Positions 7,849 through 61,298 of a DNA stretch of 64,000 bases are shown here, one piece after another; position 1 is the stretch's first letter; each line of letters opens with the position of its first letter. The position numbers and the translations under genes are program-made. The notes below the pieces were generated by a model, which saw only the letters and a list, made by a program, of their open reading frames with translations, did not search any database and was not told the origin of the DNA. Source of the DNA: an uncultured Rhodospirillaceae bacterium (GTDB lineage: Bacteria > Pseudomonadota > Alphaproteobacteria > GCA-2731375); NCBI GenBank assembly GCA_964631725.1, contig CAZVYX010000007.1:23613-87612 (forward strand), in the 5' to 3' direction.

Positions 7849-8256
7849 TCACGTCCGCGGCAGGTTATGGCCCCGGCCATCCATGGCCCGGGCCAGGCCG
7901 TCAACTATGGTTGCCCGTGTGGACCCGGCGGTGAAGATGTGCCTCACGCCCAGATCGTTCAGTTCCGCCGCCATTTCCGGCGTGATGACACCGCCGACGA
8001 CCAGGGGGATATCCAGGCCGCTGTCCCGCATCACATCCAAAATGCGTTGCGATAGATAGACCGGCTCACCGCCGAGATAGCTGACACCGACCGCGTCGGC
8101 GCCTTCTTCGCCAGCGATCTGGGCCAGGCTTTCCGGAGTGTTGTAGAGCCCGGCGTAGACCACTTCGTGGCCGGCCTCTTCCAGCCAATGCGCCACGACT
8201 GTGATGCCGTTGTCATGAGCGTCGGTGCCCACCTTGGCCAAGACAATGCGCGCCAT
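7849..8256 (-). CDS. Cobalamin-binding small subunit of a split acyl-CoA-mutase-like enzyme (paralog A)
   Basis: ..AKVGTDAHDNGITVV.. carries the DxHxxG B12 motif; ..VVGGVI.. follows. ATG at 8256 has GGGAGGGAG upstream, 14 nt after the large-subunit stop. Confidence 0.85.
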   Translation of the reverse strand: MARIVLAKVGTDAHDNGITVVAHWLEEAGHEVVYAGLYNTPESLAQIAGEEGADAVGVSYLGGEPVYLSQRILDVMRDSGLDIPLVVGGVITPEMAAELNDLGVRHIFTAGSTRATIVDGLARAMDGRGHNLPRT

Positions 8257-8270
8257 ATCGTTCTCCCTCC

Positions 8271-9911
8271 CTACTCCGCCGCGCCGCGCTGATAGCTTGG
8301 CGGGGTATAGGCGATCGCTTCGCGGAAACAGTCGCACAACTCGCCCAGGGTGGCGCCGGCCTCGACCGCATCGATGATCGCCGGCATCAGATTTTCCGTG
8401 CCCGCCGCGACCTGGCGCACGGTTTCCATCGCCTTGCCCACGGTCCCATTATCGCGCCGGGCGCGGTAGTCGCGGATATAGGCGATGCGCCCCTCGATCA
8501 TCTCCCGTCCCATGCGGAAAAAGCGCAGATCGGGCGGCGCCTCGTCTTCGTCACGGAAGGCGTTGACCCCGACCGAGACATGATCACCGCTTTCCATGGC
8601 CGCCATGTTCTCGATGCGGGAGCGGTTCAACTGTTCTTCGATCCAGCCCTGTTTGAACAGTTCGATGTAGCCGCCCCGGCTGCGCATATCGTCCATCAAC
8701 GCGGTGATCCGACCCTCCAGTTGATCGGTCATCTGCTCGACGAAGTAGGAGCCTCCCAGGGGATCGACGGTCTTCACCACGTTGGCCTCGTAGGCCAGGA
8801 TCTGCTGCGTGCGCAGGGACAGGGTATGGCTCTCCTCCGTCGGCAGGGCGAAAGGCTCGTCATAGGACGTGGTATGGATCGACTGCGTGCCCGCCAGCAC
8901 CGCCGCCAGGGTCTGCACGGTGGAGCGGGCGATATTGTTCAGGGGCTGTTGCGCCGTCAGAGGCAGGGCGGAGGTTTGTATCGCGGCACGAAACCACATG
9001 GAACGTTCATTCTGGGCGCCGTAACGCTCGCACAGCAACTTGGCCCAGATCCGCCGCATGGCCCGCAGTTTCGCCACCTCCTCGAACAGATCGATATGGG
9101 CGGCGCAGAAAAAGGCAATCCGGGGCGCGAAACTGTCCACATCCAGGCCCCGCGCCATCAACCGCTCGATATATTCCGATGCCAGAAGCAACGAAAACGC
9201 CGCTTCCTCAATGGCATTCACGCCGCATTCCCTGATGTTATAGGCGTTCAGGTTGACGACATTCCATTTCGGCATTTGCCGGGCGCAATATTCCATGACG
9301 TCAAGGCCGACGCGCAGGGAAAAATCGATCGGAAAGAAATGCGTATTCGCCTGATATGTCGGCCCCACCAACTGCGTCATGGCGCAATTCATGATGGTGC
9401 CGAGCAGGTTGGATGGATCCAGGCCGCGCTGCCGCGCCACCAATAAATACATCGCCACGATCACCGCCGAGGCCGGCGGTTGCGCGATCAAGGTGGAACT
9501 GACCTTGTCCTGGGGGATGCCCTCGAACAAGGCGGCCATGTCCTCCAACGTGGCGATGGAGGTACCTTGCAGGCCCACGTCCCCCTCGCCCAGGGGATGG
9601 TCGGGGTCGATGCCCAGCTTGGTTGCCACGTCGAAATCCACGTTCAAACCGGTCTGTCCCTGACGCAGCAGGTAGAGCAGACGTTCGTTGGAATCCGCCG
9701 GCGTGCCGAAACCGGATTGCTGGCGCCGGGTCCACAGGCGTTTGCGGTACATCTCGTCATGGATGCCGCGAGTGAAGGGATAGGCGCCGGGTTTTTCCAC
9801 CCCGGCCATATCCGCGCCATAGTCGGCCTGCAACTCAAGGCCCGACAGGCTGCGGAAATGTGCCGGCCGCTCCCCATCCAAATAGGCATTGAAGATCTTT
9901 TCATCGCTCAT
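8271..9911 (-). CDS. Methylmalonyl-CoA-mutase-family large (TIM-barrel) subunit, divergent paralog A
   Basis: 546 aa. ..PGAYPFTRGIH..MY..RLWT.RQ.SGF.., ..GLNVDFDV.., ..MPKWN.., ..APRIAFF.., ..AKLRA.R.WAKL.., ..TAQQPLNNI.R.. are colinear with MCM. The start ATG overlaps the TetR stop (ATGA). Confidence 0.85.
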   Translation of the reverse strand: MSDEKIFNAYLDGERPAHFRSLSGLELQADYGADMAGVEKPGAYPFTRGIHDEMYRKRLWTRRQQSGFGTPADSNERLLYLLRQGQTGLNVDFDVATKLGIDPDHPLGEGDVGLQGTSIATLEDMAALFEGIPQDKVSSTLIAQPPASAVIVAMYLLVARQRGLDPSNLLGTIMNCAMTQLVGPTYQANTHFFPIDFSLRVGLDVMEYCARQMPKWNVVNLNAYNIRECGVNAIEEAAFSLLLASEYIERLMARGLDVDSFAPRIAFFCAAHIDLFEEVAKLRAMRRIWAKLLCERYGAQNERSMWFRAAIQTSALPLTAQQPLNNIARSTVQTLAAVLAGTQSIHTTSYDEPFALPTEESHTLSLRTQQILAYEANVVKTVDPLGGSYFVEQMTDQLEGRITALMDDMRSRGGYIELFKQGWIEEQLNRSRIENMAAMESGDHVSVGVNAFRDEDEAPPDLRFFRMGREMIEGRIAYIRDYRARRDNGTVGKAMETVRQVAAGTENLMPAIIDAVEAGATLGELCDCFREAIAYTPPSYQRGAAE

Positions 9912-43072: not shown

Positions 43073-44683
43073 ATGGAGGACGGGCAGGCCAAGTCGGCCT
43101 CGGGCATCCCGCTAAAGGCCTATTATCGGCGCGCGGATGTCGAATCCGAGCAACTGGAGGCGCCGGGCCAGGCCGACTTCACCCGGGGCATATTCGCCGA
43201 GGGCTACCGGCGCCAGGCCTGGATGGAAAGTCTGGCCTGCGGCTACGGCCTGCCGGAGGAAACCAACGAACGCATCCGCTATCTGAAAAGCGTCGGGCAG
43301 GCCGGTTACGCCGGGCGGATGTCGATCAATCTGGTGTTCGACCGGCCAACTTTTTGTGGCCTGGACAGCGATCATCCCATGGCCCGCAACGAAGTCGGCA
43401 ACGTCGGCGTCGCCATCGATTGCCTTGACGACATGGCGCGCCTGTTCGATGGCTTCGATTTAGCGCAGTTGAACGCCGGTTTCATCGCCGATCGGTCGGG
43501 GCCGTTCCTGATGGCGATGTATATCGCCCTGGCCGACAAATGGGGCGTTGCCCGGGAGCAACTGCGCGGCATCGTCTGCAACAACCCGTTGACCGATTTC
43601 TTCTGCTCCAAGACGCCGATGTTCCCGCCCGGCGATAGCCTGCGCCTAATGATCGACTGCGTCGCGTTCTGCAACGCCGAAACGCCCCGCTTCAACACGA
43701 TCCGTATCAATGGCTACAACACCCGTGAACTTGGCAGCTCGTCGCTGCAGGAAGTCGGTTTCAATCTGGCCATCGCCAGGGCCATTATCAGCGCCGCCGC
43801 TGAACGGGGCCTGGAGTTGGACAAATTCGTCGCCGGCATCAATTTTCAGTTTTCCCAAGGTAGGGACTTCTTCGAGGATATTTGCAAAATTCGCGCCGCC
43901 AGACGCATGTGGAGCCGCATGCTGGAGGAGGAATTCGCCATCGCGGACGAGGCCGCCCGGCGGATGAAGATCCACATGCAGACCGCCGGCTCCTCCCTGA
44001 CGGCGCAGGAGCCCTTGAACAACATCGCCCGCATTGGCCTCCAGGTCCTCTCGGGCGCCCTGGCCGGCAGCCAGAGCATGCATATCGCCTCCTACGACGA
44101 AGCCCTGGGCATCCCCACGGAAGAGGCGGTGCGCACCGCCATCAAGACCTCGAAAATTGTCATGCATGAAACCGGCATAGACAAGGTCGCCGATCCCCTG
44201 GGCGGCTCCTACTATGTCGAGGCCTTGACCGACGAGTTGGAGCGCCGTATCGGCGCTGTCATGGCGGAAGTGGAGGCCGAAGGTGGCGTCATCGCGGCCC
44301 TGGAAAGCGGCTATTTCGAACAGCAAATCGCCAACACCGCGTATCTGGCACAAAGCGAGATCGAGCGCGGCGAACGCGTCGTGGTCGGCGTCAACGCCTA
44401 CCGCGAAGACGGCGATGTCGGCATCAACGAGATTTTCCGGCCCAACCCGGAGGCCGCGAAAACCGCCGTCGCGCGCATCAAGGCGCTAAAGACGACGCGT
44501 GACGCCGCCGCCGCCACGGCCGCCATCGACGCCATCAAGGCCGCCGCCACGATGGGCGAGGCGATGATGCCGCGCTATGTGGAAGCCGCCAAAGCCAACG
44601 TTACGCTGGGCGAAATGATCAACGCCGTCGAGGCGGTAACGGGGCAGTTCAGCCATGCCGCCATCACCGCGAATATCAGTTAG
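43073..44683 (+). CDS. Methylmalonyl-CoA-mutase-family large subunit, highly divergent paralog B
   Basis: 536 aa. ..FTRGI.., ..DSDHP....EVG.VGVAID...DM.., ..TPRFN.., ..KIRAARRMW.., ..SLTAQEPLNNIARI.., ..DPLGGSYYVE.LT.. are colinear with MCM. Starts 9 nt after the DapA-like stop. Confidence 0.8.
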   Translation: MEDGQAKSASGIPLKAYYRRADVESEQLEAPGQADFTRGIFAEGYRRQAWMESLACGYGLPEETNERIRYLKSVGQAGYAGRMSINLVFDRPTFCGLDSDHPMARNEVGNVGVAIDCLDDMARLFDGFDLAQLNAGFIADRSGPFLMAMYIALADKWGVAREQLRGIVCNNPLTDFFCSKTPMFPPGDSLRLMIDCVAFCNAETPRFNTIRINGYNTRELGSSSLQEVGFNLAIARAIISAAAERGLELDKFVAGINFQFSQGRDFFEDICKIRAARRMWSRMLEEEFAIADEAARRMKIHMQTAGSSLTAQEPLNNIARIGLQVLSGALAGSQSMHIASYDEALGIPTEEAVRTAIKTSKIVMHETGIDKVADPLGGSYYVEALTDELERRIGAVMAEVEAEGGVIAALESGYFEQQIANTAYLAQSEIERGERVVVGVNAYREDGDVGINEIFRPNPEAAKTAVARIKALKTTRDAAAATAAIDAIKAAATMGEAMMPRYVEAAKANVTLGEMINAVEAVTGQFSHAAITANIS

Positions 44684-44695
44684 AGACGTGCCGGC

Positions 44696-45100
44696 ATGAA
44701 CGACCCAGCGATCCGGGTACTGCTGGCCAAGCCAGGCCTGGACAGTCATGAAAGCGGCATCAAGATGATCGCGGCGGGCCTGCGTGACGCCGGCATGGAA
44801 GTCATTTACCTAGGCGTCTTCCAAACCTCCGACAGCATCGTTAGCACTGCCCTGGAGGAGGATGTGGACGTGATCGGCCTGAGCTATCTCTCGGGCGGCC
44901 ACCAGGGCCTGACGGCGGAGCTTATGGCAGCCCTGAAGGACGCGGGCCTGGCCCACGTCAGCGTCATTTGCGGCGGCATCATTCCCGATGACGATCACGC
45001 CGCCCTGAAAGAGATCGGCGTCAAGGGCATCTACGGACCCGGCACGCCGATGGCCGAGGTGGCAGCGGAAATCATGGGCATTGCACGGGGCACAGGGTAA
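44696..45100 (+). CDS. Cobalamin-binding small subunit (paralog B)
   Basis: ..RVLLAKPGLDSHESGIKM.. (DxHxxG), ..DV..IGLS.LSG.H.. and ..GGIIP.. 134 aa, 12 nt after the large subunit. Confidence 0.85.
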   Translation: MNDPAIRVLLAKPGLDSHESGIKMIAAGLRDAGMEVIYLGVFQTSDSIVSTALEEDVDVIGLSYLSGGHQGLTAELMAALKDAGLAHVSVICGGIIPDDDHAALKEIGVKGIYGPGTPMAEVAAEIMGIARGTG

Positions 45101-52569: not shown

Positions 52570-54195
52570 ATGTCCGAACCAGATAACGAACCAACCCTGA
52601 ATCAAAGCCGGCGCGGCGTCCTTAAATCCACGGCGGCGGCGCTGGGAATAGCGGCCACGGCCGGTCTGCCGCGATGGGCTGGCGCGAACCCGAAACGCGG
52701 CGGCGTATTGCGTTTCGCCACCCGCTCGGAGGCGCGCGGCACCGATCCACACAAGAATTTGATCTACAACGTCTCGCAACCGCTGGCGGCGATGTCCCAA
52801 GGACTGTTGGATATTGCACCCGACCTGTCGCCCGCGCCGGGAATCGCCAGCGAATGGGATATCTCGGACGATTTGCAAACCTATACCTTCAAGCTGCGCC
52901 AGAGTGTGACGTTCCACAATGGCGCGGATGTCGATGCGGCGGCGGTGAAATGGAATTTTGAACGGATCATGGAGCCGAAAACCGGCCACCCGCTTGCCCG
53001 TTCGAGCCTGGAAAACATCAAGGAGATCAAGGTCCTCGACAAGCATACCCTGCGCTGCGTGTTGGAGCAGCCCAGCGCGGTCTTCCTTTCGAATGTGACG
53101 TATTATCCCTGCAATCTGATCGCCCCGAACAGCGTCGAACAAGCCGCCACCCACCCCATCGGCTGCGGCCCCTTTAAGTTCAAATCCTGGAAATCCTGGA
53201 ATCGGACGGAACTGGTGCGGTTTGAAAATTATTTCGAGACCGATGCCAATGGCGCGGCCTTGCCGTACCTGGATAGCGTCGTCGGGCTTCCAAAAAAGCA
53301 GGACCGGGCCCGCCTGGATGCGCTAACAAGCGGCGAGACGGATTTGATCGACCATTTGGGCTATGCCGACGCCGGCCGGTTTCGCCGCGAATTTGGCAAC
53401 AAATTTCAAACCTGGAATGTGCCCCAAGTGGGCACCGCCTGGATCGGCTTCAATCTCAAGACCGGCCCCTTCTCGTATCAAAACTCAGAAGGCCACGCCC
53501 TACGCACGGCGGCGGCCCATGCCATCGACCGCGAAGCCATACACCAATCGGTCTTCTACGGCCTGGGCAATTCCACGCACGGGTTCTACGGCCCGGACAG
53601 CCCCTGGCATATGCCTGATGTAACACCGGGGCCGGAGTTCAATCCGGATAAGGCGCGCTTCCTGCTGCGGCGCCATAATCTGCAGAACACACCGATCGCC
53701 TTGGTTTCGCGGCAGGATTTCGCCTACATGCATCAGGCCGGCGAACTGATCCATGCCATGTGGGCCGAGGTCGGCTTCAAGGTTACGCACGATATCCTCC
53801 CGAACCGGGTGTTGCGTGAGAAATACCGCCTTGGGTCCACCGAAGCCGGTGTCTACGATGCCGATTCCACCGCTTCCGCCTACCGCGCCGATCCCGATAG
53901 CTGGTTCTATCGTTCGTTATTGTCTTCGTCGCCGTCAACAAAACTGCGCCTGGGCTACAACAGCGAACAGGTGGATACGCTGATCCGGGAGGCCCGCATA
54001 ACCAGGGACCGGAACAAACGGCTGCACCTTTATACCGAGGCGGAAAATCTCATCAACGAAGAGCTGCCCCTGATCTACACCCACACCGTGCCCCTACTGC
54101 AGGGCGGCGTGAAAAATCTCGCCGGCTACGCGCCAGCATTCGCCGGCCCCTTCAGCACCGTCGGCTCAGGTATCCGGACAGCGCATTTTGTCTAG
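52570..54195 (+). CDS. ABC transporter substrate-binding protein, family 5, copy 2
   Basis: Tat-like signal ..SRRGVLKSTAAALGIAATAGLPRWAGA. The body is colinear with copy 1 (for example ..THPIGCGPFKF.SWK....E.VRFEN..). Confidence 0.85.
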   Translation: MSEPDNEPTLNQSRRGVLKSTAAALGIAATAGLPRWAGANPKRGGVLRFATRSEARGTDPHKNLIYNVSQPLAAMSQGLLDIAPDLSPAPGIASEWDISDDLQTYTFKLRQSVTFHNGADVDAAAVKWNFERIMEPKTGHPLARSSLENIKEIKVLDKHTLRCVLEQPSAVFLSNVTYYPCNLIAPNSVEQAATHPIGCGPFKFKSWKSWNRTELVRFENYFETDANGAALPYLDSVVGLPKKQDRARLDALTSGETDLIDHLGYADAGRFRREFGNKFQTWNVPQVGTAWIGFNLKTGPFSYQNSEGHALRTAAAHAIDREAIHQSVFYGLGNSTHGFYGPDSPWHMPDVTPGPEFNPDKARFLLRRHNLQNTPIALVSRQDFAYMHQAGELIHAMWAEVGFKVTHDILPNRVLREKYRLGSTEAGVYDADSTASAYRADPDSWFYRSLLSSSPSTKLRLGYNSEQVDTLIREARITRDRNKRLHLYTEAENLINEELPLIYTHTVPLLQGGVKNLAGYAPAFAGPFSTVGSGIRTAHFV

Positions 54196-54956
54196 GTAAT
54201 ACGGAAGCGGGTACCGCAAATCATCACGGAATCGCCGTCCACGGCCAACGCCCGCGCATTCGCGGCGGCCAGAATGGCCGTCTTGTCGGCGGCCTTGAGA
54301 TCGACACCGCCAAGGCCTTCGCCGCGGCCATCGGTGACATCGACAAAGCGCAAGGTGGCATTGTCCAGGACGATTTCGGCGGCACCCGAAGCGCCCGTGG
54401 TCACGGGCACGTCGAGAATTTCGCCCCAGCGCGCCGCCAGGGCGCCCGGATCCGGGCTTTGCAGTTCCGCCCCGATCATGGCCGCCGTCCGCTCCACCCG
54501 CACGGCGTCGCGCCAATCCTTGCCAGCCGGGTGCCAGGGGCCGTCGGGGGCCTGATCGCCATCGGTCTGGTCATTTTCCAGCATGCAGCCGCCGGTATCG
54601 CGGGGATGCAACTGGATACCGGTGAAATCTCCATAGTTCAGGGCATTGGCAACGCGCACGCCCAACTCGCCGACGCGGGTGCGGCGCTCTTCCACGTTGT
54701 CGCACTGCAGAATGACCATGTAGCCGCAATCACCGCCCCGGCGTTCCAGATAGCGGCCGCCGGCGGTGTTCTCCTCAATCGGTGCCACCACTTCAAGGAA
54801 GTTCGTGCCCACGGGCAGCAAGGCATTTTCCAGACCGTATTTGCCCACGGCGGGGTCGTGAAAACAGGTCGCCAGACCCAAAACATCGGTCAACATATCC
54901 ACGGCCGGCGCCAATTCCTCGGCCACCAGACAGATTTGCCGCAATCGCAACATCAC
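54192..54956 (-). CDS. VOC (glyoxalase-like) family protein
   Basis: ..LRQICLVAE.L......L..VLGL.........V..YGLENALLPVG..FLEVV.P.. resembles a glyoxalase-like domain. The C-terminal half is unassigned. Confidence 0.65.
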   Translation of the reverse strand: MMLRLRQICLVAEELAPAVDMLTDVLGLATCFHDPAVGKYGLENALLPVGTNFLEVVAPIEENTAGGRYLERRGGDCGYMVILQCDNVEERRTRVGELGVRVANALNYGDFTGIQLHPRDTGGCMLENDQTDGDQAPDGPWHPAGKDWRDAVRVERTAAMIGAELQSPDPGALAARWGEILDVPVTTGASGAAEIVLDNATLRFVDVTDGRGEGLGGVDLKAADKTAILAAANARALAVDGDSVMICGTRFRIT

Positions 54957-54968
54957 ATTATCCTCCCT

Positions 54969-55943
54969 TCAAACCCCATCACCCAGCGACGTTTCTTGCA
55001 GTTGCCGCAATAGCAGCGTCGCCGCGGCATCCAGCCCAAGGTCCCCCCGTTGCACCTGGGCGCAAAGGTCATCCACATTGGCAGCGCCGACGTCGCGGAT
55101 CAATTGCCTGACACGCTGCGCCGTGGCATCGGCCAGCAGGCGGCGTACCCGTTGCAGGGCGCGGGCGGCCCGCTCCTCCGCCGTCACCGCCACGCCCTTG
55201 CGGGCCTCCACCGCATCCGCCAGGGCAACAATTCCCTCGCCCGTCGTGGCCGTGGTGGAGAGCACCGGCACTTCCGCCATCTCCGCCTCCCGCAGGGACA
55301 GCATGCTTTTCAATTGACTGACCGTACGCTCCGCCAGGGGGAGGTCGGCCTTGTTGACGACAAGAATATCGGCGATTTCCAGTATGCCGGCCTTGATCGC
55401 CTGAACGTCATCACCCAGGCCGGGAGCGCAAATGACCACGCGCACATCGGCGATTTCGGCAATCTCGACCTCCGACTGACCGGCGCCGACGGTTTCCACA
55501 ACGACAATGTCCCGGCCGGAGGCATCCATCACATCGATAACCCGCGCCGCCATCGGCGACAGCCCGCCCAGATGGCCCCGCGCGGCCAGGGAGCGGACAA
55601 ATACGCCGGGATCACGGGTGTGCTCGCTCATGCGAATGCGGTCGCCCAGAATGGCCCCGCCCGTAAGTGGTGAGGACGGGTCGACCGCGACGACCCCGAC
55701 GCTGTGTTCGCGCCGGCGCAACTCCACGATCAGGGCATTGACCAGGGTCGACTTACCGGCCCCCGGCGGACCGGTAAAGCCAACCACCAGGGCATGTCCC
55801 AAATGCGGCTGAATGCCGGCCAGCAGCTCCGCCGCCTGCGCGGTGTCATTTTCCACGGCGGTAATCGATTTCGCCAACGCGATGGCCTGCCCCGCTAGGA
55901 GACGTTGCAGCAGGCTATCCGGTTCCTTCGCTGCCGCCGCCAT
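54969..55943 (-). CDS. meaB: Methylmalonyl-CoA-mutase-associated G-protein chaperone MeaB/ArgK
   Basis: ..GFTGPPGAGKSTL.., ..VAVDPSSPLTGGAILGDRIRM.., ..VVETVGAGQSE.. and ..VVNKADL.. Confidence 0.9.
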   Translation of the reverse strand: MAAAAKEPDSLLQRLLAGQAIALAKSITAVENDTAQAAELLAGIQPHLGHALVVGFTGPPGAGKSTLVNALIVELRRREHSVGVVAVDPSSPLTGGAILGDRIRMSEHTRDPGVFVRSLAARGHLGGLSPMAARVIDVMDASGRDIVVVETVGAGQSEVEIAEIADVRVVICAPGLGDDVQAIKAGILEIADILVVNKADLPLAERTVSQLKSMLSLREAEMAEVPVLSTTATTGEGIVALADAVEARKGVAVTAEERAARALQRVRRLLADATAQRVRQLIRDVGAANVDDLCAQVQRGDLGLDAAATLLLRQLQETSLGDGV

Positions 55944-55945
55944 GA

Positions 55946-56353
55946 TCAGGCCGCCGCCCGGGCCGCACCGGCCAGGCGGGTAATTTCCTCGACAATCCGC
56001 TCCCGCGTGCTGCCCGGATGGAAAATGGCGGCGACACCGGCGGCCCGCATTCCATCAATATCCTGATCCGGTACGATACCGCCAAGCACGACCTGGACAT
56101 GTCCCAGATCGGCCTCCTTCAAGGCGGTCATTAAATCCGGCAGCAGCAAATGATCGGTGGCCAGGGACGAAACGCCGATGACATCCACGTCCTCCTGTGT
56201 CGCCAGGGCGACAACATCGGCGATTTCCTGCCAGGGGCCGGTGTAAACAACTTCCATCCCGGCATCGCGCAAATAGGCCGCGACAATCCGGCTGCCCCGG
56301 TCGTGGCCGTCGAAGCCAATCTTGGTGATAAGAACCCTGGCCGGCGCGGTCAT
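55946..56353 (-). CDS. Cobalamin-binding small subunit, canonical mutase type (paralog C, no adjacent large subunit)
   Basis: ..RVLITKIGFDGHDRGSRIVA..LRDAGMEVVYTG.. (DxHxxG), ..DVDVIGVSSL.. and ..GGIVP.. ATG at 56353. The stop is 2 nt before the meaB ATG. Confidence 0.85.
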   Translation of the reverse strand: MTAPARVLITKIGFDGHDRGSRIVAAYLRDAGMEVVYTGPWQEIADVVALATQEDVDVIGVSSLATDHLLLPDLMTALKEADLGHVQVVLGGIVPDQDIDGMRAAGVAAIFHPGSTRERIVEEITRLAGAARAAA

Positions 56354-56471
56354 GAAGTTCCGTCCCCGATCAGGGGCGCCAAAAAGACGTTTCCGATACT
56401 GCAATACATGGCAAATTTTCTAAGCAGCATGATCCGGCGAGTCAACAGGACAGTACGCCACGCCGGCGTCC

Positions 56472-56861
56472 TCAAACAATTCGCTTCCAATAGCTGTCCT
56501 TGCTGGCGATCAGGCCGTCACGGACAGTGTAGATGTCGACGCCACGGACGTCATAAGGGCTACCGTCCGCCACATAGGTCCCCGTGGCGCGGAAGGTGCC
56601 AATGATGTGGCCATCGGCATGGTGTACCGCCGTCTCGGAAAATCGGACATCGCGGACGATCTTGGCCCGCTCCGCCAAGGCCTGCTTAACCTCTTCGGCG
56701 CCATGGCGAATTCGGCCGTGGGGAGCGTCGGGACCTTGGGCCTCTACCCAGACGAAATCGTCGGTTACGCAGGCCAAAATGCCCTCCACATCGGCCCGGT
56801 TAAAGGCCTTGCCGAAGCGGCGCAAAAGATCCATCGCCGCATCTTCGGATTGGCTCATCAT
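56472..56861 (-). CDS. SnoaL-like / NTF2-family protein
   Basis: 129 aa. ..LLRRFGKAFN..D.EGILA.VTDDFVW.. and ..G.D.YTVRDGLIA.KDSYWK.. fit a SnoaL-like fold. Confidence 0.65.
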   Translation of the reverse strand: MMSQSEDAAMDLLRRFGKAFNRADVEGILACVTDDFVWVEAQGPDAPHGRIRHGAEEVKQALAERAKIVRDVRFSETAVHHADGHIIGTFRATGTYVADGSPYDVRGVDIYTVRDGLIASKDSYWKRIV

Positions 56862-57760: not shown

Positions 57761-59125
57761 TCAGGCAACCGCCGCGCTGGCCGCCTCCTCCCGCTCGACG
57801 CGAAGGCGGCGCATTTCATCGGCCACCAGAGTGGGCATGGCACAGAGTTCGCAGTCGTTGGGCAGGGCCGCCGGCTCGAATGAATCAACACCGTACTTCA
57901 GACGCATCTTGGCGATCTCGCGCACATTTTCCACGAACCATTCGCCACGCGGTGGCCGCTCGCCGGCATAGGCGGTGCCTTCGACCGGGCTCCAGACCAG
58001 GGGGATCGGCGCGATACCCCGTTCGCACAGCCATTCGATGCCCTCGAAGAAGCTTTCGTGGGATTCCCGGAAACAGCCCGTGACCAGATGCGTGCTGACC
58101 TTGCCCGGCCCATAGACCTCGGCCGCGATTTCCAGCGCCTTCAGCCAATGATCCCGGCCCTGCTGTTCCGCCTTGCCCGGGCAATGCTTCTCGAACAGTT
58201 GTTCATTCCAGACTTCCAGATTATAGGCGACGGAATAGAAGCCCTGTTCCTTGTGCACCGCGATGGTATCCAGGTCCTCGGGTGCAGTGCGGATCACGTT
58301 GACGGGAATTTCATGCCGGCCCAGGGCTTCCTGCATGGCCCTGACGACGTTCAGGATCATGTCGCCCTCGCGGTCGTTGACCGTGCCGTCGCGCTTCACC
58401 GTGCGCTTCAGGAAACCGCCGGTAAGCAGAATATGGCGCACGCAGCCTTCCTCAAACGCGGCGCGGGCGGTGGCGACGATTTGATCATAGCTGCGCTTGT
58501 TGAGCTGCAGATCGTCCTTGGTCCAGCCCATGTTCGGCACGATGTTGCAAAAATCACAGCCCTTATCGTTGGCCCAGTACATACAAAACGGCGAATAGTT
58601 CAGGACCATGCAGTCCTGGCCCCGCTTTGGCGCGACGCGGCGCATGATGATGCCGGGAGAAGCCTCCATGCTGTAGTAGTTGGGCCGCGGGATATGACGC
58701 GCCTCCATGACGAACTTGCCGTCCCGTTTCAGCATCAACTGGCCATCTTCCACGGTACACAGCCAGCGCGATTGCTTGTCCTCGCGCACCTGTATGGTGG
58801 TGTCCATGGGCAGCACCAGTTCCTCGGGCAGATAGTATTCGTGCTCGCCGTGGTTCCAATCGAACAGCCAGCGGGATTGCTCACGGTAGATTTCATTGAC
58901 GCCTTCCAGGGCGGAGGGGTCGAATTGCACGCCGTCGGCCAACAGGCTGCCCTTGACCCAAATTTCCTGCTCCAGACCCTTCGCGGTGGGCGCCAGGCCG
59001 GGCTTGATGAAGGGCGCGTTCTGCCGCTGCGCGCCATGGATTTCGTCGTACCAGGTATTGTATTTGTCGTTGATATCGGCGAACGGATCCGCATCGGCGG
59101 CGGTGCTTCTGGCGATCATGTTCAT
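57761..59125 (-). CDS. Radical-SAM-like protein with non-canonical C-x8-C-x2-C motif and long N-terminal extension
   Basis: ..SPFCMYWANDKGCDFCNIV.. (nt 58547-58585) with ..HILLTGGF.. 43 residues later. ATG at 59125 has GGAGGAG 7 nt upstream, 19 nt after the GntR stop. The longer ORF (to 59299) overlaps GntR and is Arg-rich. Confidence 0.6.
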   Translation of the reverse strand: MNMIARSTAADADPFADINDKYNTWYDEIHGAQRQNAPFIKPGLAPTAKGLEQEIWVKGSLLADGVQFDPSALEGVNEIYREQSRWLFDWNHGEHEYYLPEELVLPMDTTIQVREDKQSRWLCTVEDGQLMLKRDGKFVMEARHIPRPNYYSMEASPGIIMRRVAPKRGQDCMVLNYSPFCMYWANDKGCDFCNIVPNMGWTKDDLQLNKRSYDQIVATARAAFEEGCVRHILLTGGFLKRTVKRDGTVNDREGDMILNVVRAMQEALGRHEIPVNVIRTAPEDLDTIAVHKEQGFYSVAYNLEVWNEQLFEKHCPGKAEQQGRDHWLKALEIAAEVYGPGKVSTHLVTGCFRESHESFFEGIEWLCERGIAPIPLVWSPVEGTAYAGERPPRGEWFVENVREIAKMRLKYGVDSFEPAALPNDCELCAMPTLVADEMRRLRVEREEAASAAVA

Positions 59126-59144
59126 AACATTTCTCCTCCCAAAA

Positions 59145-59897
59145 TCAGCTTTCGTCCCGCAGCGGAATCGAAGCCTGATAGCTGTAGCGGTCCCCCCGCA
59201 GGTATAGGTGCGATACCGCGACCGGCCTGCCATCGTCCGCGGTATAGACGTTCTCGACCATGAACATCGGCGCCCCGAATTCGACCTCAAGCAGTTCATT
59301 CAGGTCGCGGTCGGCGGTGGTTGCGACAACCCGTTGGTCCATGCGGGCCAGGGTGAAGGCGCAATCCTTGCGCATGACATCGACGAAACTGCGTACGCCG
59401 GACATGGTCTCATCGGCGATGAAACCAAAATCCTCAACCCTGCCAAAGTTGACGTGCAGCGATATGGTCTCGCCCTGCAGGCGGCGGATGCGCCGCATGG
59501 TCCACAGTTCGGCCTGGGCCCGGCAACTAAAAATTTCCGCCACCGCCGACGGCGCGGGCGCCGCGCCGATGCTCAGCACTTCCTGCTCAATCTCCCGGTC
59601 CTCACCGCTGGCCGTATCCAGCCATTCGGCAAAATTGCCCGACAGCTTGACCTCAATGCCCGCCGGATCGGGCCGCTTCGTCACGATGGTGCCGATGCCG
59701 CGCCGGCCCTGGACCAGGCCATCGGCCGCCAGCAGATCGATCGCCTTGCGTATGGTGATGTTGGAAACGGAAAATATCTGCTCCAGCACCACCGCCGCCG
59801 GCAGGGTCTCACCGGTGCTGTATTCACCGCTGGAAATACGACGGCGCAGGGTGTTGGCGACCTGCCGGTATTGCGGAATGGCTCCTGCGACACTCAC
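59145..59897 (-). CDS. GntR-family transcriptional regulator (HutC subfamily, UTRA effector domain)
   Basis: Winged HTH ..YRQVANTLRRRI.SGEY..G..LP....L.....VS..T.RKA...L...GL...R.G.GT.V.. with a UTRA-sized C-domain. GTG start has GGAGGA upstream. Confidence 0.85.
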   Translation of the reverse strand: MSVAGAIPQYRQVANTLRRRISSGEYSTGETLPAAVVLEQIFSVSNITIRKAIDLLAADGLVQGRRGIGTIVTKRPDPAGIEVKLSGNFAEWLDTASGEDREIEQEVLSIGAAPAPSAVAEIFSCRAQAELWTMRRIRRLQGETISLHVNFGRVEDFGFIADETMSGVRSFVDVMRKDCAFTLARMDQRVVATTADRDLNELLEVEFGAPMFMVENVYTADDGRPVAVSHLYLRGDRYSYQASIPLRDES

Positions 59898-59921
59898 GGT
59901 TAGTTCCTCCTCGACCAGACC

Positions 59922-61298
59922 TTATTCAAGGTCGATCATTTTGCCGGGGTTCATGATGTTTTCCGGGTCAAGAGCACGCTTGATCTGCCGCATGACTTCC
60001 ACCGCATCGCCCAGTTCCTCGACCAGGAAGTCCTTCTTGCCCAGGCCGATGCCGTGTTCGCCGGTACAGGTGCCATCCATGGCCAGGGCGCGGCGGATCA
60101 TGCGGGCGTTCAGGTCTTCCGCCTCCGCGACCTCGGCCTCGCTGTTGGGATCGATCACATAGATCAGATGAAAATTACCGTCGCCCACATGGCCCAGCAT
60201 GGGCGCCGGGAAGGAACAGCCTTCTAGCTCCTTCTGGGTCTCGACAATGCATTCGGACAGGCGGGAGAGCGGTACGCAAACATCGGTGCCCCAAAGCTCG
60301 GCGCCCTGCCGCATCGCCTTGACCGCCGGGGCGGCGTCATGACGGGCCTGCCAAAGGGCATCCCGTTTCTCCTGCTGGGTTTCCCAATTGAATTCGCCGC
60401 CGCCGAATTCCGCGACGATGGCCGAGGTCACTTCGATCTGCTCCTCGACGGACTTTGGACCGCCGTTGAATTCCATGAACAACGTCGGCTGTACGGGATA
60501 GTCAAAGCCGGAATAGTCATTGATCGCCTGTAACTGCACTTCATCGACCAGCTCAACGCGCGCTATGGGCACGCCCGCCTGTATGGTGCTGACCACGCTA
60601 TCGACGGCATCCTTGACGGAGGGGAAATTCACCACCGCCGCCGCGATGCTTTCGGGTATGGCATGCAATTGCACCGTGATCTCGGTCATCACGCCCAGGA
60701 TGCCCTCGGAGCCTACGAACAGGCGGGTCAGATCCAATCCGGCGGACGACTTCTTGGCCCGCTGGGCCGTGTTGATAACGCGGCCGTCCGGCAGGACGAC
60801 TTTGATGGCGATGACGTTGTCCTTCATGGTGCCATAGCGCACGGCATTGGTGCCGGAAGCCCGGGTCCCCGTCATGCCGCCGATGGTGGCGTCCGCGCCG
60901 GGATCCACCGGAAAAAACAAACCCGTGTCGCGAATATGCTCATTCAGTTGTTTTCGCGTCACGCCGGCCTGCACCGTGCAACTGAAATCCTCCGGATAAA
61001 CCGAGAGAATCCGGTTCATCTGTCCCATGTCCATGCAGACGCCGCCCCGCACCGCCTGAATGTGCCCCTCAACCGAAGTGCCAACGCCAAAGGGGATCAG
61101 CGGTGTCTTCGAACCCGCACAGATCTTGACGATTTCAACGACTTCCTCGGTGCTGTGGGGAAACACCACCGCATCGGGCGGCTGGGCGCCGTGCCAGAAT
61201 TCGTCCCGGCCATGCTGTTCCCGCACCGCCTCTGCCGTGCTCAGCCGCTCCGCCAAAAGATCGCCGATTGCATCGGTTACCGAAGCCGAAATTGACAT
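59922..61298 (-). CDS. FAD-linked oxidase (GlcD / D-lactate dehydrogenase-like), second copy
   Basis: ..VVFP.STEEVV.IVK.C.....P.IPFG.GTS.EG.. and C-terminal ..GT.TGEHG.G.GK... ATG at 61298 follows GGGAGAGGG. Confidence 0.85.
   Translation of the reverse strand: MSISASVTDAIGDLLAERLSTAEAVREQHGRDEFWHGAQPPDAVVFPHSTEEVVEIVKICAGSKTPLIPFGVGTSVEGHIQAVRGGVCMDMGQMNRILSVYPEDFSCTVQAGVTRKQLNEHIRDTGLFFPVDPGADATIGGMTGTRASGTNAVRYGTMKDNVIAIKVVLPDGRVINTAQRAKKSSAGLDLTRLFVGSEGILGVMTEITVQLHAIPESIAAAVVNFPSVKDAVDSVVSTIQAGVPIARVELVDEVQLQAINDYSGFDYPVQPTLFMEFNGGPKSVEEQIEVTSAIVAEFGGGEFNWETQQEKRDALWQARHDAAPAVKAMRQGAELWGTDVCVPLSRLSECIVETQKELEGCSFPAPMLGHVGDGNFHLIYVIDPNSEAEVAEAEDLNARMIRRALAMDGTCTGEHGIGLGKKDFLVEELGDAVEVMRQIKRALDPENIMNPGKMIDLE

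Follow-up and report, generated by a model that had tools for sequence, protein, structure and literature searches.

A close known relative of the genes discussed here is the operon of the pivalyl-CoA-mutase (PCM) type on plasmid pXAUT01 of Xanthobacter autotrophicus Py2, which runs from a TetR regulator (Xaut_5045) through a B12 domain (Xaut_5044) and a large, or barrel, subunit (Xaut_5043) to a MeaB-like protein (Xaut_5042). The two subunits of a split mutase may also be encoded apart, as are IcmA and IcmB of Streptomyces cinnamonensis. The same holds for the methylmalonyl-CoA mutase (MCM) of Metallosphaera sedula, an active enzyme whose large (Msed_0638) and small (Msed_2055) subunits are unlinked (Han et al. 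2012, tabulated in PMC7078158). At the level of the single parts, an isolated cobalamin (Cbl) domain is bound by the chaperone MeaB, the GTPase of which is stimulated 25-fold, and a structure of Methylobacterium extorquens MeaB with the MCM Cbl domain is available (PDB 8DPB; PMC9974510). Here we analyse a 64,000-nucleotide stretch of DNA from an uncultured Rhodospirillaceae bacterium (contig CAZVYX010000007.1; ‘the window’ below), in which a cobalamin-binding small subunit of the PCM type (S3) and a MeaB-type G3E GTPase chaperone are encoded side by side with no mutase barrel next to them. The pair is what is left of a PCM-type operon, it is under purifying selection, and on balance its partner is probably a barrel whose gene lies in another part of the genome. 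Loci compared with the window carry L numbers.

Origin of the S3-MeaB pair

The identity of the two genes is not in doubt. S3 scores 82 bits against PF02310 (cutoff 32.1) and 119.4 bits against TIGR00640 (cutoff 57.45), and it carries GFDGHDRGSRIV (DxHxxG), SSL and GGIVP. The motifs expected for base-off/His-on binding of the cofactor (D15-G-H17-D-R-G20, S62-S-L64 and G91-G92) are all present and are invariant in alignment A1. MeaB scores 303.6 bits against the equivalog model TIGR00750 (cutoff 240.75) and 282 bits against PF03308, and its P-loop, switch I, switch II and NKxD motifs read GPPGAGKST, DPSSPLTGGAILGDRIRM, VETVGAGQSE and NKAD, respectively. The stop codon of S3 (55946-55948) lies 2 nt from the ATG of MeaB (55943), a spacing that makes translational coupling of the two genes likely. 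It is through this coupling, kept at L007-L010, L102 and L107, that MeaB is associated with a B12 mutase component, the barrel being absent. A preliminary description, made by eye from the open reading frames, had recognised both proteins by most of these motifs and noted the 2-nt spacing; every motif that it quoted is present, and the profile searches agree with both identifications. It had also taken S3 for the most canonical small subunit of the window, a ranking that has to be given up: on TIGR00640, S2 scores above S3 and S1 below it (Table 1).

Table 1. Coordinates of the S3-MeaB pair, its neighbours and the split mutases of the window
Feature	Position	Strand	Remarks
Split mutase A, small subunit S1	7849-8259	minus	TIGR00640 92.3 bits
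Split mutase A, large subunit	8271-9911	minus	PF01642 555 bits
Split mutase B, large subunit	43073-44683	plus	PF01642 537 bits
Split mutase B, small subunit S2	44696-45100	plus	TIGR00640 141.5 bits
VOC/Glyoxalase_3-like	54192-54956	minus	254 aa; last gene of the S3-MeaB-VOC unit; 12 nt after MeaB
MeaB-type G3E GTPase chaperone	54969-55943	minus	324 aa; TIGR00750, PF03308
S3, cobalamin-binding small subunit, PCM type	55946-56353	minus	135 aa; PF02310, TIGR00640
Promoter-like island	56398-56445	minus	TTGACT (56445-56440), 17-nt spacer, TAGAAA (56422-56417), then ATTTGCCATGTATTGCAGT block
SnoaL_2	56472-56861	minus	Pfam
GDPD	56874-57632/57680	minus	Pfam
Variant radical SAM protein	57761-59125	minus	NF045502 312 bits; 454 aa from ATG at 59125
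GntR/UTRA regulator	59145-59897	minus	part of insertion block 57761-61298
FAD-linked oxidase	59922-61298	minus	part of insertion block 57761-61298

The large subunits of split mutases A and B are the only mutase barrels in the window, and each has a small subunit of its own (S1 and S2), as had been noted before. The nearest PF01642 gene begins 10.3 kb from the pair and is one of those already provided with a small subunit. A tblastn search of the window with PCM-type barrels returned no further barrel and no pseudogene remnant; together with the profile search, it bears out the earlier remark that no barrel stands beside S3 and MeaB. Large subunit A is 32-34% and large subunit B 34-35% identical to PCM-type large subunits (31-47% when all parts of mutases A and B are compared with PCM-type parts). 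At the specificity positions, those of MCM Tyr89/Arg207, barrel A has Gln/Asn and barrel B has Ala/Lys, and both have Asn at the catalytic-site position of MCM His244. This Asn and the unusual specificity residues confirm that barrels A and B are far from all characterised mutases.

The relatives of S3 at other loci tell of a different setting. In a more distant alphaproteobacterial metagenome-assembled genome (L011/L012), the gene order is TetR, small subunit (138 aa), large subunit (563 aa), large subunit (574 aa), MeaB and VOC, and the window genes are 75% (S3), 76% (MeaB) and 75% (VOC) identical to their counterparts at L011. Further relatives of S3, at 70-73% identity (L013-L015, L097, L098 and L170), are found in TetR-small-large(-MeaB) operons. 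The 574-aa barrel of L011 (large574) has Xaut_5043 as its best annotated match (67.8% identity), and over their full length S3 shares 67% identity with Xaut_5044 and the window MeaB 58% with Xaut_5042. The specificity positions of these barrels were located by aligning Xaut_5043 to P. shermanii MCM, human MCM and HcmA. At the positions of MCM Tyr89/Arg207, Leu/Asn is found in Xaut_5043, in both L011 barrels and in L013, L097 and L170; the barrels of L015 have Val/Leu, which hints at a different substrate.

The phylogeny of MeaB points the same way. In a maximum-likelihood tree of 73 MeaBs, the window sequence and its relatives are arranged as (L011,((L016,L017),(window,(L007,L009)))), with support of 99/92 and 100/96, and the window group is nested inside a larger group that consists mostly of PCM-operon MeaBs. 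From gene order, identity and tree combined, the S3-MeaB pair derives from a PCM-type operon, an origin that the preliminary description had not recognised, and the large-subunit genes were lost from the locus in the window's clade.

Some of the PCM-type operons have peculiarities of their own. At L011 (10460-13920), there are two tandem barrel paralogs, 76% identical, for one small subunit. At L015 (2980-4680 and 8446-10146), two barrel paralogs that are 84% identical lie 3 kb apart, the second of which has no small subunit of its own and adjoins a 4HBT thioesterase. At L171 (5575-5984), the small-subunit gene of an otherwise intact operon is split into calls of 89 aa and 65 aa; since the gene is intact (141 aa) on the sister contig L170, a frameshift or an assembly error is the probable cause. 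Shared flanks of L011 and the window's clade were also considered, but with an identity of only 29% between the upstream ECH genes this idea was rejected.

Selection, gene loss and the probable partner

The constraint on S3 and MeaB is not relaxed. Within the clade (window, L007 and L009; dS 0.4-1.0), the ratio of non-synonymous to synonymous substitution rates (dN/dS) is 0.07-0.13 for S3, 0.08-0.11 for MeaB and 0.06-0.15 for VOC. For comparison, 13 pairs of intact PCM-type operons give 0.05-0.29 for the small subunit and 0.07-0.45 for MeaB; purifying selection on the window pair thus matches that on intact operons in strength. S3 of the window keeps 62/62 columns that are at least 90% conserved among 42 intact-operon small subunits, and all 14 clade variants of S3 are free of frameshifts and stops.

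The 118-nt gap between SnoaL_2 and S3 (56354-56471) holds a promoter-like island. Its hexamers, with about 20 further bases, are the sole block of this spacer that is conserved across the window, L007 and L009 (dS 0.5-1.0), the remainder being variable in length and sequence and rich in indels. A strict consensus promoter scanner made no call in the gap, the -10 hexamer having A at its position 6, and it is conservation alone that marks the island. Its conservation suggests that S3-MeaB-VOC may have a promoter of its own.

The clade as a whole shows how the locus has shrunk. Contigs from several marine metagenomes carry the exact window S3 in the same gene order, which DNA reads confirm in several samples and in a strain that is about 97% identical. 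Between the common flanks of the clade, with alpha/beta-hydrolase(-) and ECH(-) on one side and SBP_bac_5(-) on the other, the locus occurs as GDPD-SnoaL-S3-MeaB-VOC (window, L007-L010, L102, L107), as GDPD-SnoaL-MeaB-VOC with no trace of S3 (L016, L017), as GDPD-SnoaL-VOC (L106, L108) and as GDPD-VOC (L099, L103, L105). The B12-domain/MeaB/VOC neighbourhood, the conservation of which had been proposed as a check on the pair, is thus kept in the first group and broken in the others, where S3 or both S3 and MeaB are deleted. Deletions of both genes leave spacers of 15-36 nt before VOC, and VOC itself is present in every clade variant of the locus.

In the VOC tree, there are two supported subclades, one made up of MeaB-VOC forms and the other of full and most reduced forms. 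MeaB is present in both subclades, and S3 in one of them and in the outgroup L011, a distribution which shows that the reduced loci are derived, the deletions having occurred independently several times. Where VOC homologs fall below about 70% identity, MeaB, small subunits and barrels are all missing from their surroundings, and the five homologs checked adjoin ECH or alpha/beta-hydrolase genes. This marks VOC as the resident gene, around which the mutase parts are being lost.

Two further observations concern the deletion series. In L016 (9738-9993), a nested-palindrome element of about 250 nt stands in S3's place, between SnoaL and MeaB. It has two perfect 20-nt hairpins within imperfect 70-nt outer inverted arms and resembles a miniature inverted-repeat transposable element or a repetitive extragenic palindrome (MITE/REP-like). 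Read joints at the window locus that might have represented deletion variants were short-sided and of low likeness, and they were not trusted.

With the cognate barrel genes gone from the locus, with S3 and MeaB repeatedly and cleanly deleted in sister lineages and with a palindromic repeat occupying S3's place in L016, the pair could be taken for a functionless relic, the frames of which persist through short time or through read-through transcription to VOC. Such a relic would not be expected to show, in both genes, dN/dS of about 0.1 over dS 0.4-1.0, which does not exceed the intact-operon values, nor to keep every conserved position and remain without a frameshift or stop in 14 clade variants. 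We regard this explanation as very unlikely.

Strong purifying selection, the complete set of conserved columns and the promoter-like element argue instead that S3 and MeaB most likely work in trans, and we consider it on balance probable that they serve a barrel whose gene lies elsewhere in the genome; the preliminary description had rightly listed a partner in trans among its options. The history is as follows. An ancestral operon held TetR, a small subunit, one or two large subunits and MeaB, followed by VOC. In the ancestor of the marine alphaproteobacterial clade, the large-subunit gene(s) and TetR were removed from the locus, and the removal of the barrel gene(s) brought the small-subunit stop to 2 nt from the MeaB start. 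The S3-MeaB-VOC unit that remained would still be functional, with its own promoter-like element. S3 would bind adenosylcobalamin via the histidine of DxHxxG; MeaB would dock on S3 and gate the loading of the cofactor and its removal once damaged; and the loaded S3 would complete a presumed barrel subunit encoded elsewhere in the genome. The function of the pair would be accessory, and sister lineages have later deleted S3 and then MeaB. In this way, the apparent puzzle of a B12 subunit and a chaperone without an enzyme is replaced by a history of operon erosion, and a stranded S3 under unrelaxed selection predicts a partner in trans. That S3 is fully conserved favours a classical barrel as this partner, and MeaB may also serve other split mutases. 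Service in trans has parallels within the PCM family, where one small subunit is found for two barrels (L011) and a second barrel has no small subunit of its own (L015).

Several results weigh against service to a distant barrel. No partner barrel was seen in the window or among the 120 top-ranking homologs of L011 large574 in the database. These homologs (at least 69% identity) are found on at most 12 contigs each, and the clade S3 variants on 17, 76 and 135 contigs. Set against such abundant S3 variants, the low counts of the barrel homologs indicate that a close PCM-type barrel in the window's abundant clade is not evident. The three large574 homologs examined (P0131, P0139 and P0222) all belong to intact TetR-small-large-MeaB operons. 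Sister lineages have lost S3 and MeaB repeatedly, which shows that the pair is dispensable. Moreover, the locus is absent from the metatranscriptome runs of the same studies. As for the function of the family, we take the pivalyl-CoA mutase characterised by Kitanishi, Cracan and Banerjee (J Biol Chem 2015) to be Xaut_5043/5044.

It may be, then, that the S3-bearing genomes hold no PCM-type barrel, and that the pair has been re-used, either as a free-standing carrier and gatekeeper of adenosylcobalamin for several divergent split mutases or, in the case of S3, as a small subunit recruited by a non-cognate barrel. We think this unlikely. If no cognate barrel exists, the window would hold a natural counterpart of the minimal MeaB/Cbl-domain system, which has so far been laboratory-made only. 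A related idea makes S3 and MeaB a free-standing cobalamin module that buffers adenosylcobalamin or relays it to several mutases and is not a stoichiometric subunit of any. In its favour, an isolated Cbl domain complexes with and activates MeaB (PMC9974510), the window pair is coupled and conserved without a barrel, Chloroflexota likewise encode a small subunit together with MeaB where no barrel lies within 10 kb, and there are several split mutases in the genome. Nevertheless, a classical barrel partner explains the retention of PCM-type positions more simply, and unlinked subunits are known for ordinary mutases, for example Msed_0638/Msed_2055 (PMC7078158). This module therefore strikes us as highly improbable.

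The preliminary description held that small subunits and MeaB are normally encoded beside their mutase. The order small-large-MeaB, with a PCM-type large subunit, is indeed found at 43 of the 80 genome loci that hold the closest MeaB relatives. The rule was nevertheless overstated, in that no barrel gene is present at 17 of the 53 loci flanked by at least 5 kb on either side; of these 17, three are Chloroflexota small-MeaB pairs. With about one-third of the closest MeaB relatives having no barrel nearby, adjacency is a weak guide to the components of B12 mutases. At the Chloroflexota loci themselves (L084, L085, L089 and L093), MeaB is immediately preceded by a small B12 subunit, and no barrel occurs within 10 kb.

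A further option of the preliminary description has MeaB acting in trans on mutases A and B. MeaB would then be a general G-protein chaperone of the other split mutases in the genome, A and B included, with S3 kept as a spare or adaptor small subunit. It is the single MeaB of the window: tblastn of the window found no second one, and none adjoins mutase A or B. Its persistence without S3 in L016 and L017 shows a role independent of S3, and the 14 of 53 well-flanked loci of related MeaBs where small and large subunits are both missing from the vicinity show that trans-acting MeaBs are common. An approximate mapping of MeaB contacts (PMC9974510) finds the acidic residues E54 and D57 common to S1, S2 and S3, and D30 to S2 and S3; it does not discriminate between the hypotheses and was given little weight. 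Mutases A and B are possible clients in trans. This account leaves unexplained, however, why S3 retains every PCM-conserved position under strong selection; A and B have small subunits of their own, with parts only 31-47% identical to those of the PCM type; and MeaB itself is deleted in L106, L108, L099, L103 and L105. We treat a general chaperone as a real but doubtful possibility, and continue to prefer a barrel encoded elsewhere.

Neighbouring genes and the radical SAM block

On the minus strand, 61298-54192 reads as eight genes: FAD-linked oxidase, GntR/UTRA regulator, radical SAM protein, GDPD, SnoaL_2, S3, MeaB and VOC. The same-strand neighbours that had been named by eye (SnoaL-like, GDPD, radical-SAM-like and VOC) are all recovered by Pfam and NCBIfam. 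VOC scores 22 bits against Glyoxalase_3, which is below the cutoff, and its N-terminal half matches the methylmalonyl-CoA epimerase model TIGR03081 with an E-value of 1.8e-9, far under the cutoff. The VOC family is widespread in marine data (L110, L117, L124, L128 and L130), with ECH/isomerase or alpha/beta-hydrolase genes as neighbours, and these surroundings suggest a possible acyl-CoA-related role unconnected with B12. For GDPD and SnoaL_2, no link to B12 chemistry was found; both are kept in the clade, in full and reduced variants of the locus.

The three genes from the oxidase to the radical SAM protein have a history of their own. The block is present only in the contigs with the exact window S3 (L001-L005) and in the strain that is about 97% identical; between ECH and GDPD, it is absent in L007-L010, L016, L017, L102, L103 and L106-L108. 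The identity of homologs of the radical SAM protein falls from 94% straight to 71% or less, and outside the species they come from Aminicenantes, Gemmatimonadales, Acidobacteriota and Bacteroidales. On this distribution, the oxidase-GntR-radical SAM block is an insertion specific to the window's species. The radical SAM protein itself (NF045502) has a Cx8CxxC-like spacing, CMYWANDKGCDFC, and belongs to a sparse family spread over unrelated phyla. Its neighbours in Aminicenantes and Gemmatimonadales are M19/M55/S15 peptidase genes and an alanine-racemase-like gene.

The preliminary description had raised the option that S3 and MeaB partner this radical SAM protein, the gene of which lies on the same strand as S3, about 1.4 kb away. 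That option has to be rejected. The block is missing from all other clade members that keep S3-MeaB; the pairing of S3 with MeaB is older than the block, as the MeaB tree indicates; and GDPD, SnoaL and the gap with the promoter-like island intervene. Furthermore, the homologs in Aminicenantes and Gemmatimonadales (two neighbourhoods examined, L172 and L173) adjoin peptidases and have no B12 or MeaB genes around them. A partnership with the radical SAM protein is, in our view, scarcely tenable.

Comparison with known systems

Each of the known systems shares a part of the arrangement seen in the window. The Chloroflexota pairs have the same small-MeaB arrangement as an independent occurrence, but they are only 40-50% identical to the window pair and belong to a different MeaB branch. 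The M. extorquens complex consists of the same pair of parts, with a MeaB of the same family (TIGR00750) and with the same G motifs; in contrast to that MeaB, which is of the MCM-associated branch, the window MeaB lies on the PCM-operon branch. Service in trans has its precedent in the MCM of M. sedula, the small subunit of which is not encoded next to its barrel and yet forms an active enzyme with it. There the partner is known, whereas in the window the separation arose by loss of the barrel from an operon.

The Xanthobacter PCM system is the one to which the window locus can be compared gene by gene. The small subunit comes before MeaB in both. The Xanthobacter operon also includes a TetR gene and a large subunit with the Leu/Asn pocket, and the window locus has neither. 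After MeaB, Xanthobacter has a PaaD-type thioesterase and a CoA ligase where the window has VOC, and the window unit, unlike the Xanthobacter operon, sits behind GDPD and SnoaL genes. Altogether, these are genes of known families in an arrangement that has precedents, and the window locus is an ordinary instance of operon erosion.

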